DNA of 62,562 bases, the filler included, from Rhabdomonas costata (taxonomy: Eukaryota): NCBI GenBank assembly GCA_019059605.1. It is 26 parts of 26 records of this genome, joined end to end, with 100 filler letters (N's around TTAATTAATTAA, not from the genome) between each part and the next. Parts side by side here need not be neighbours in the genome. Positions count along the whole stretch, not along the records: positions 57,852 to 60,157 come from JAHMHO010004147.1; 25 more parts are not named here. One strand, 5' to 3'. Each line of letters begins with the position of its first letter. Within the stretch, counting starts at the first letter, position 1. A model generated the notes under the pieces. The model had not been told where the DNA came from. It was given only the letters and a program-made list of their open reading frames with translations, and did no database searches. The position numbers and the translations under genes are program-made. This document shows positions 58,960-60,130 of the stretch, piece by piece.

Positions 58960-60130
58960 CGTGTGTTCATCGGACGCATGGTTGCATCATTTCTTTTTCC
59001 AAACATTTAAATCCTCCAGCCCTGACCTGGTCAGCTACTATGTGATGATACAGTCACCCTGGAAGTGATTCATTAGGCTTTGGGGTCAGTGGGGAATAGT
59101 TCTTTCTATGTGGTCGGAGAATTATGCCCGGTAGCTTTGTTTTCCATTCTATTTTTGCAGTTCGCCAACAATACTTCTGTGGAGCAATCTAGAATATATT
59201 ATCCATGTTTCGGCATAGTAAGACAGTCTAACCTCCTCATCTTCTCTGTGCTCATAAGCTACCTAATGCGGAATGACGTCGATTCTGTCTTGACTAGGTT
59301 TGTGGGACAAGATTTTGAGGTACGTTTGCAGATACTGCTGTCTTTGGTAGTGATATCCATCGTAGTGTGTCTCGTTTTGCATCGTCTCCTTGAGAGGCGC
59401 ATGCAGGAAGATCCTGGGCACTACTTTGTGCAATAAAAATTGACTGGTGAGGGCGCAGGTTTTGGGCTTTTCGAATGCCTGCGAGTGTTTGCCTCGCCAC
59501 GATACCTTGTTTGTATCTGTACAATGGTGACGTCTTATAGTTGTATGATAAATCTGATGGAGTGGGCGTGGTTTTTTAAAGTAAGCCAGCTATATCCAGA
59601 TAAGGAACGCTTCTACAAATATGCTGCGGATATCACGTTTTACACCGGGCCCGTGAGCATGTTTTGCGCTCATTTGGGTGGATATATAGTTCGTAAGTTT
59701 GGCTGGCTTACAGCCGCCGTACTTACTCCGATATAAAACGAAAAAATGAGCACGGTATTTTTCCTGAGCATCTTTATAGACGCCATAGACAACAGGATCT
59801 ACTGTTGGGTGCATCTGAACTTCTGATGACCGTAATCGCTGCCAGTCCAAACCGTGCTCTGTAATGGGTCAAATACTCCATATTTGATGCCACGAAGGAG
59901 ATGTCGTACGTACCGCTTCCACACTCCTTGAAGACTCAGGCAAAGGAGCGGTAGAGATTATAGGGCCTAACGTTGGCAACGCCATCGGGGCTAGTTTGAA
60001 CAGCAGTATATTTTTCCTCTTTCCCACGAGCTGATACGACGATATCACGCTTATACTTGCCACCGCATCCTTAGCCATCTGCGCTGTATGGGTATACAGT
60101 GCTATGCATATAGATACTTCTTATCAATAA
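58960..60130 (+). pseudogene. tlc: Decayed Tlc/Npt-family nucleotide (ATP/ADP) transporter
   Basis: Ordered TLC motifs: FIRLWGQW / FYVVGELCP..FSILFLQFAN..SVEQSRIYYPCFG / SPRYLVCICTMVTSYSCMINLME..W / LYPD / IVRKFGWLTAAVLTP / KYSIFDATKEMSYVPL / GKGAVEIIG..VG.AIGA / AVWVYS. Interrupted by stops (59066, 59434, 59734, 60032) and frameshifts. No introns. Confidence 0.92.

Follow-up and report, generated by a model that had tools for sequence, protein, structure and literature searches.

A Rickettsiales-type TLC/NTT transporter pseudogene on a contig of a euglenid genome assembly

Results and discussion

Location and extent of the pseudogene

The stretch of DNA analysed here (62,562 bases; hereafter, the window) belongs to a euglenid assembly and carries, at 58991–60130 on the plus strand, a well-delimited pseudogene of Rickettsiales origin. 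The element is a member of the TLC/NTT transporter family (PF03219) and can be aligned collinearly with homologues from bacteria, starting near residue 100 and reaching their natural stop codon. The window consists of 26 separate contigs of 2303–2372 bp, which appear to be ordered by size and are set apart by spacers of the form N44-TTAATTAATTAA-N44 (e.g., 57752–57851 and 60158–60257); inference of linkage across any of these linkers is invalid. The linker word also occurs once naturally, with no Ns around it, in contig 16 (37057–37068). According to the map of N-runs and linkers, contig 25 (57852–60157, 2306 bp) is the sole piece physically joined to the pseudogene. No open reading frame (ORF) of more than 128 amino acids was found anywhere on this contig, and scans of the window for Rfam families (gathering thresholds) and for tRNAs returned no match each.

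Contig 25 begins with a stretch of balanced base composition and host-like dinucleotides (57852–58450), in which no gene was recognisable on either strand. A non-tandem block rich in G and T on the plus strand (58451–58950; G 33%, T 36%, A 15%, C 17%) lies immediately upstream of the pseudogene, which itself falls into four pieces, all on the plus strand. Piece A (58991–59098) corresponds to homologue residues ~100–140 and shows weak homology (tblastn, 38–50% over 28–42 amino acids). Piece B (59101–59796) spans residues ~142–365 in a single frame that is interrupted by TAA codons at 59434–59436 and 59734–59736. Piece C (59799–59939) covers the region of the VKYSxFDxTKEM motif (hidden Markov model (HMM) match at E 3.4e-11, profile 406–431) and contains a TAA at 59862–59864, while piece D (59942–60127) represents the C-terminal portion (profile 427–459 and 462–492) with a TGA at 60032–60034. 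The terminal TAA (60128–60130) matches the end of the homologues, and the contig ends 27 bp further on.

Family membership was evident from several kinds of profile. Two ORF pieces exceeded the curated cut-off of Pfam PF03219 (TLC), which is 21 bits: 59077–59436 (51.0 bits, E 1.3e-13, profile 150–255) and 59437–59736 (74.7 bits, E 8.5e-21, profile 270–359). Six further ORF pieces, each scanned singly against Pfam, were too short for a score. A 241-residue piece (P0001), translated from 59077–59799 with two TAA codons read as X, matched the NCBIfam model TIGR00769 “NTP/NDP exchange transporter” (E 7.8e-36, 124 bits); the full-length cut-off of that model (387 bits) was missed by P0001 and also by intact relatives (330–363 bits). 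The same piece matched the NTT structures 9j3n_A (E 1.1e-22) and 9j3j_A, the chloroplast AATP1 (E 3.6e-17). A custom HMM built from 12 full-length homologues aligned in five ordered pieces (profile 148–254, 268–358, 406–431, 427–459 and 462–492), with an additional weak piece (profile 138–149) at 59069–59131 (E 0.15). Searches by tblastn with the closest homologues placed the start at 58990/58991, equivalent to homologue residue ~96–104, and the end at 60124–60127.

The 5′ end of the gene is absent: the first ~100 codons are missing by tblastn and ~137 profile positions by HMM. An N-terminal exon was sought upstream on contig 25 with both methods and none was found; all upstream HMM matches had E > 3, and all three forward frames of 57852–59076 were crowded with stops. 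Likewise, the other 25 contigs yielded no TLC fragment, the top stray tblastn match having an E value of 0.22.

Lesions and degree of decay

Together with a TGA at 59066–59068, which sits at a conserved tryptophan of the homologues, the stops listed above bring the number of in-frame stop codons to five. In addition, three frameshifts separate the pieces, near 59099 (A/B), 59797 (B/C) and 59940 (C/D), so that no open reading frame for a protein exists along the homologous path. Short introns at the frameshifts were ruled out, as the alignments are collinear there and show no extra residues. A variant genetic code was likewise rejected: both TAA and TGA are present, the residues aligned with the TAA sites vary, and the three frameshifts would remain. 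A first-pass annotation had described this locus as a decayed, intron-free TLC gene at 58960–60130 broken by several stops and frameshifts. The homology found here runs over 58991–60130, making those coordinates accurate, and the lesion counts and collinear alignments bear out the remainder of that description.

A random path of 377 codons with the same base composition would be expected to contain ~20 stops, compared with the five seen here, which indicates that the frame is damaged yet far from randomised. At 48 columns conserved at ≥90% among 44 intact homologues, the pseudogene keeps 34 residues and loses 14; by the same test, nine intact members of its clade keep 86–100% (0–14% lost). Among the positions changed are lysines in the KTKGK...GxKLGKS region (K332Q, K343N and K346N). 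By a crude conversion, neutral decay since the loss of constraint would amount to ~0.08–0.15 substitutions per site. With decay this modest, much of the 57% divergence from the nearest relative would be older than the decay itself, which suggests that the donor lineage is unsampled. Judging from these lesions, the pseudogene probably has no function today.

Relatives and phylogenetic placement

A word-indexed protein search with the 241-residue piece against longer proteins gave 1599 candidates, none of them at E ≤ 0.001. An exhaustive HMMER search with P0001 against 1.84 billion representatives found 591 proteins at E ≤ 0.001 and 164 at E ≤ 1e-10; none reached E ≤ 1e-30, and the best match (P0002) shared 35% identity with the 241-residue piece. 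Seeding a search with P0002 retrieved 64 relatives, including named proteins of Candidatus (Ca.) Sneabacter namystus, Rickettsiaceae metagenome-assembled genomes (MAGs) and Orientia chuto. From a locus scan covering one genome per prokaryote species, 79 loci were kept out of 97 confirmed matches; their titles were mostly Rickettsiaceae or Rickettsiales, with a few Cardinium, Amoebophilaceae and other labels.

For comparison at full length we used a read-through of 395 positions, with X at the eight breaks, in local BLAST against 278 gathered proteins. P0168, which is identical to the gene L002 of MAG Rickettsiales RE-15aug16-152, matched with 42% identity over 373 residues (E 1e-89), a score that chance could not plausibly produce. 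Similar identities were obtained for P0169 (43%), P0167 (42%), P0166 (42%) and P0173 (39%), followed by P0164, the Ca. Sneabacter namystus gene L001 (37%). No intact relative above 43% identity was present among the gathered proteins. A metagenome locus scan with P0166 recovered 21 loci, none of which was the contig of P0166 itself; all were 21–37% identical to the read-through.

The pseudogene was nested inside a bacterial (Rickettsiales) group in all three trees that we computed. FastTree with 279 rows placed it within a ten-row clade together with these relatives (support 100), an IQ-TREE quick search under LG+C20+F+G4 with 45 rows recovered the same clade (100 by the Shimodaira–Hasegawa-like approximate likelihood ratio test, SH-aLRT), and a careful IQ-TREE search with 21 rows gave a nine-row clade (ultrafast bootstrap 100/SH-aLRT 99). 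These values refer to clade membership and do not fix the place of the pseudogene inside the clade; its terminal branch in the 21-row tree measures 1.5, against 0.1–0.8 for the other members, and rows on such long branches are placed less surely. Among the clade members are a paralogue from the diplonemid symbiont Ca. Sneabacter namystus and sequences from freshwater MAGs. These placements support Rickettsiales, and within them the clade of Ca. Sneabacter namystus, as the putative donor lineage. The PF03219 search and phylogeny that the first-pass annotation had suggested as a check thus confirmed the family and narrowed the choice of donors it had offered: Rickettsiales stood, Chlamydiae did not, and no named member of Holosporales, its third candidate, fell within the clade.

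The genomes of Ca. Sneabacter namystus and RE-15aug16-152 are ~0.6 Mb each and encode four intact TLC paralogues each. In both genomes, two or more of the remaining TLC copies outscore the orthologue of the pseudogene against the Pfam profile. The pseudogene is therefore probably not derived from the classical ATP/ADP-type copy, and “ATP/ADP translocase” is to be taken here as a family label rather than a demonstrated substrate.

The host and the other contigs

The identity of the host was apparent from a dynein light chain roadblock exon on contig 9 (19940–20266; 86% G+C at third codon positions, GC3), which is 99% identical to EukProt entry RCo035682 and 89% identical to EG_transcript_56254. 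In the published draft-genome report, “RCo” numbers label Rhabdomonas costata transcripts (PMC8219788). The exon thus identifies the host as a euglenid, either R. costata or a very close relative, which sharpens the earlier description of the assembly as euglenozoan-like. Stop-to-stop ORFs from across the window, scanned against Pfam in a first set of 24 and a second of 140, gave matches on six of the 26 contigs, to ABC2_membrane, cyclase, WSC, MORN, Roadblock/LC7 and tRNA-synt_1c domains, all representing short exons of eukaryotic genes. An ABC2-type transporter gene on contig 2 is split into exons at 2806–3180 and 3784–4326, ~600 bp apart, and a Glu/Gln-tRNA synthetase gene on the minus strand of contig 16 into pieces at 36345–36677 and 37960–38103, ~1.3 kb apart; both fit an intron-rich euglenid genome. 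The MORN exon matched only eukaryote MORN clusters in the Protein Atlas and was not taxonomically informative.

Two points of the first-pass annotation concerned the immediate neighbourhood of the pseudogene and did not hold. The intron-dense host genes that it had set beside the TLC stretch lie on other contigs, with none on contig 25. Moreover, a motif chain supposedly shared between contig 1 and the contig of the pseudogene was not found, contig 25 having no blastn similarity to any contig. A repeat resembling contig 1 is located on contig 26 (60258–62562), past the N linker, and was probably the one meant: two adjoining segments of a dispersed repeat in C+T-rich DNA, 77–80% identical, link 1283–1463 on contig 1 to 60769–60996 on contig 26. 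Contig 26 carries direct repeats of 127 bp at its two ends (99.2% identical) and may be a circular or tandem unit of ~2178 bp; its long ORFs gave no Pfam match. At the start of contig 8 lies a near-perfect palindrome of 72 bp (16865–16935, 89%) that could be a hairpin artefact of amplification or assembly. A dinucleotide microsatellite is common to contigs 6 (13255–13292), 15 (35933–35983) and 24 (55804–55848).

Composition of contig 25 and origin of the pseudogene

We compared composition by an index of dinucleotide relative abundance, calculated by subtracting the distance to the pooled other contigs from the distance to a bacterial pool. The left flank of the pseudogene (57852–58990) gave an index of +0.095. 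Values for 50 half-contigs from the other 25 contigs ranged from 0.010 to 0.146 (median 0.084), and the bacterial controls reached at most 0.012 (158 flank pieces) and 0.034 (75 TLC genes). The flank contained no gene remnant detectable by Pfam in nine ORFs, the only signal being a sub-threshold IBR match (E 0.013), and tblastx against the 79 bacterial loci revealed no bacterial gene remnant upstream (best E 1.3). Its 500-bp G+T-rich block (69% G+T) resembles blocks on contigs 1, 6, 9 and 12; together with contig 25, these are the five of 26 contigs that have a 300-bp window of at least 64% G+T. The blocks reach 78% G+T in 300 bp and are non-tandem, the one on contig 12 extending over 26490–27240; each of the five has its G+T excess on the strand as given, with no A+C-rich case among them. 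The pseudogene has a G+C content of 44.8%, with 45.6/37.9/50.9% at codon positions 1/2/3, and each of these values lies above the respective maximum of the 75 bacterial homologues (41.7% for the gene; 44.2/37.6/47.1% by position). It thereby leans towards the other contigs, which average 51.3%.

A nuclear location of the pseudogene is likely on these grounds, with composition as the basis for the host side. On balance, we lean towards a transfer of DNA from Rickettsiales to a euglenid, of which the pseudogene would be a relic decaying in the nucleus. Its ancestor would have been one paralogue of an NTP/NDP exchange transporter of the type found in highly reduced Rickettsiales endosymbionts of protists, supplying the bacterium with nucleotides taken from its host. 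A Rickettsiales bacterium once living in or with the euglenid lineage may have given DNA to the nucleus; the transferred fragment would either have been truncated on arrival or have lost its 5′ end afterwards. In this course of events, the junction between host flank and pseudogene would be real rather than an assembly artefact, and neutral decay since then would amount to roughly 0.1 substitutions per site.

Several observations weigh against a nuclear relic. Neither blastn against the other contigs nor Pfam revealed a recognisable host gene or shared repeat on the 2306 bp of contig 25, so that the host linkage is a matter of composition alone. The dinucleotide index of the pseudogene itself is –0.024 and lies inside the bacterial range, in which five of the 75 genes exceed –0.016 and the L002 gene reaches +0.006; by this measure, the pseudogene exhibits no clear amelioration. 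Residues with G+C-rich codons are already frequent in the nearest proteins, P0166 and P0169, and the raised G+C of the pseudogene may therefore have been inherited from a donor that was perhaps moderately G+C-rich. Finally, the report on the published R. costata draft describes whole-genome-amplified DNA, a positive 16S polymerase chain reaction for one of two samples, and filtering of proteins for prokaryotic contamination (PMC8219788). If the assembly of the window is comparable, a chimeric or contaminant contig is conceivable, as is a transcript removed by the filtering.

A chimera would consist of host DNA (57852 to ~58950) that amplification or assembly had artificially fused to a TLC paralogue already pseudogenised in a Rickettsiales symbiont or in a co-isolated bacterium. 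The dinucleotides of contig 25 are in keeping with such a join, host-like in the left half and bacterial-like or intermediate in the right, and the composition changes abruptly at ~58950, exactly where homology starts. The assembly is highly fragmented, the palindrome of contig 8 is a possible amplification artefact, and the published draft of the likely host species was made, as reported, from amplified and partly contaminated DNA (PMC8219788). However, two uncommon events would have to coincide, an artificial join and a heavily broken bacterial transporter gene. The two named relatives retain all four TLC paralogues intact in their 0.6-Mb genomes, and the G+C content of the pseudogene is above that of all 75 bacterial homologues sampled. 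We therefore regard a chimera as unlikely.

Contig 25 could instead derive in its entirety from a present-day, pseudogene-rich Rickettsiales symbiont hosted by the euglenid or by some other member of the culture, and would then comprise a decaying tlc gene and degraded intergenic DNA. The nesting of the pseudogene in Rickettsiales and the lack of a detected host gene or repeat on the contig suit this view, as do reports of Rickettsiales inside the euglenids Petalomonas sphagnophila and Eutreptiella sp. (PMC8061765). It is at odds with the flank index, which is close to the host median and outside the values of all 158 bacterial flank pieces and 75 genes, with the G+C content of the contig (47.7%, compared with a median of 33% for the homologous bacterial genes), with 2.3 kb devoid of longer ORFs, and with the G+T-rich block that resembles those of other contigs. 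Such a symbiont contig appears improbable to us.

Equally improbable is a host-encoded transporter that was once functional and later died, or a processed, 5′-truncated copy of one, whose intact or intron-bearing parent may persist elsewhere: the 5′ truncation and lack of introns would fit a retro-copied mRNA, the G+C content exceeds that of all bacterial homologues, the estimated decay is modest, and a survey table tallies one euglenozoan genome with an NTT-domain protein (PMC5381601), but a GC3 of 51% contrasts with 76% and 86% in two host exons of the window and does not suggest that the gene was long shaped by host codon usage, no homologue exceeded 43% identity to the read-through among the 278 gathered proteins or 35% in the 1.84-billion library (P0001 query only; the related word-indexed collection includes EukProt entries), and the contig end, 27 bp past the stop, leaves no room to check for a poly(A) trace.

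Implications of a nuclear relic

The explanation as a nuclear relic can be extended to a more specific and rather doubtful scenario, in which a euglenid near Rhabdomonas costata, a primary osmotroph, once housed a Sneabacter-like reduced member of Rickettsiales; the captured transporter gene would be the sole surviving trace of this partner and may even have served the host before it decayed. In the literature searched, we found no prior report of this element or of endosymbiont DNA integrated in a euglenid nucleus. If the junction is real, the pseudogene would record, as a molecular fossil, that a euglenid for which no symbiont is described was once associated with Rickettsiales. A symbiont of diplonemids, another euglenozoan group, would then be a relative of the donor; a Rickettsiaceae symbiont has been reported in the diplonemid Namystynia karyoxenos (PMC8061765). 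Should the junction be spurious, what is left is a warning that this fragmented assembly contains a chimeric or contaminant contig. In both cases the gene is dead and teaches nothing new about transporter biology.

Comparison with known systems

The closest known counterparts of the pseudogene are the TLC paralogues of Ca. Sneabacter namystus and RE-15aug16-152 together with P0166, P0167, P0169, P0173, P0002, P0162 and P0163, all members of the same clade. They resemble it at 37–43% identity over ~373 residues and share the motifs FExRL..LLSxVVI...LH and FPxSxYDDI in otherwise variable regions. These relatives are intact proteins of 475–506 amino acids, whereas the pseudogene lacks ~100 N-terminal codons and bears five stops and three frameshifts. 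L001 and L002, the only ones known from bacterial genomes of ~0.6 Mb, have a G+C content of 33–37%; the pseudogene, at 44.8%, adjoins host-like DNA.

The Tlc transporters of Rickettsia and Orientia belong to the same Pfam and NCBIfam family, and a sister group of the clade that contains the pseudogene includes genes of Rickettsia, Orientia, Megaera and Tisiphia. These paralogous transporters go by the names Tlc1–5, with Tlc1 being an ATP/ADP translocase. Eukaryote-encoded NTTs, such as the plastid NTT1/AATP1 and those of Microsporidia, which are reported to have been acquired horizontally (PMC5923384), offer a parallel as bacterial-type NTTs in a eukaryote setting, and AATP1 was among the structures matched above. 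These transporters are functional and expressed, whereas the pseudogene is dead and truncated. In the trees it grouped with Rickettsiales and not with the single Chlamydiota MAG used as outgroup, the trees holding no named plastid sequence.

Nuclear integrants of endosymbiont DNA are familiar from Wolbachia-to-arthropod transfers. Like them, the pseudogene is part of a Rickettsiales gene that no longer functions and is decaying beside host-like DNA. It differs in that integration is deduced here from the composition of one 2.3-kb contig and in that the host is a euglenid. The bacterial gene relic in a eukaryote is a kind already known, to which the pseudogene would add a member.

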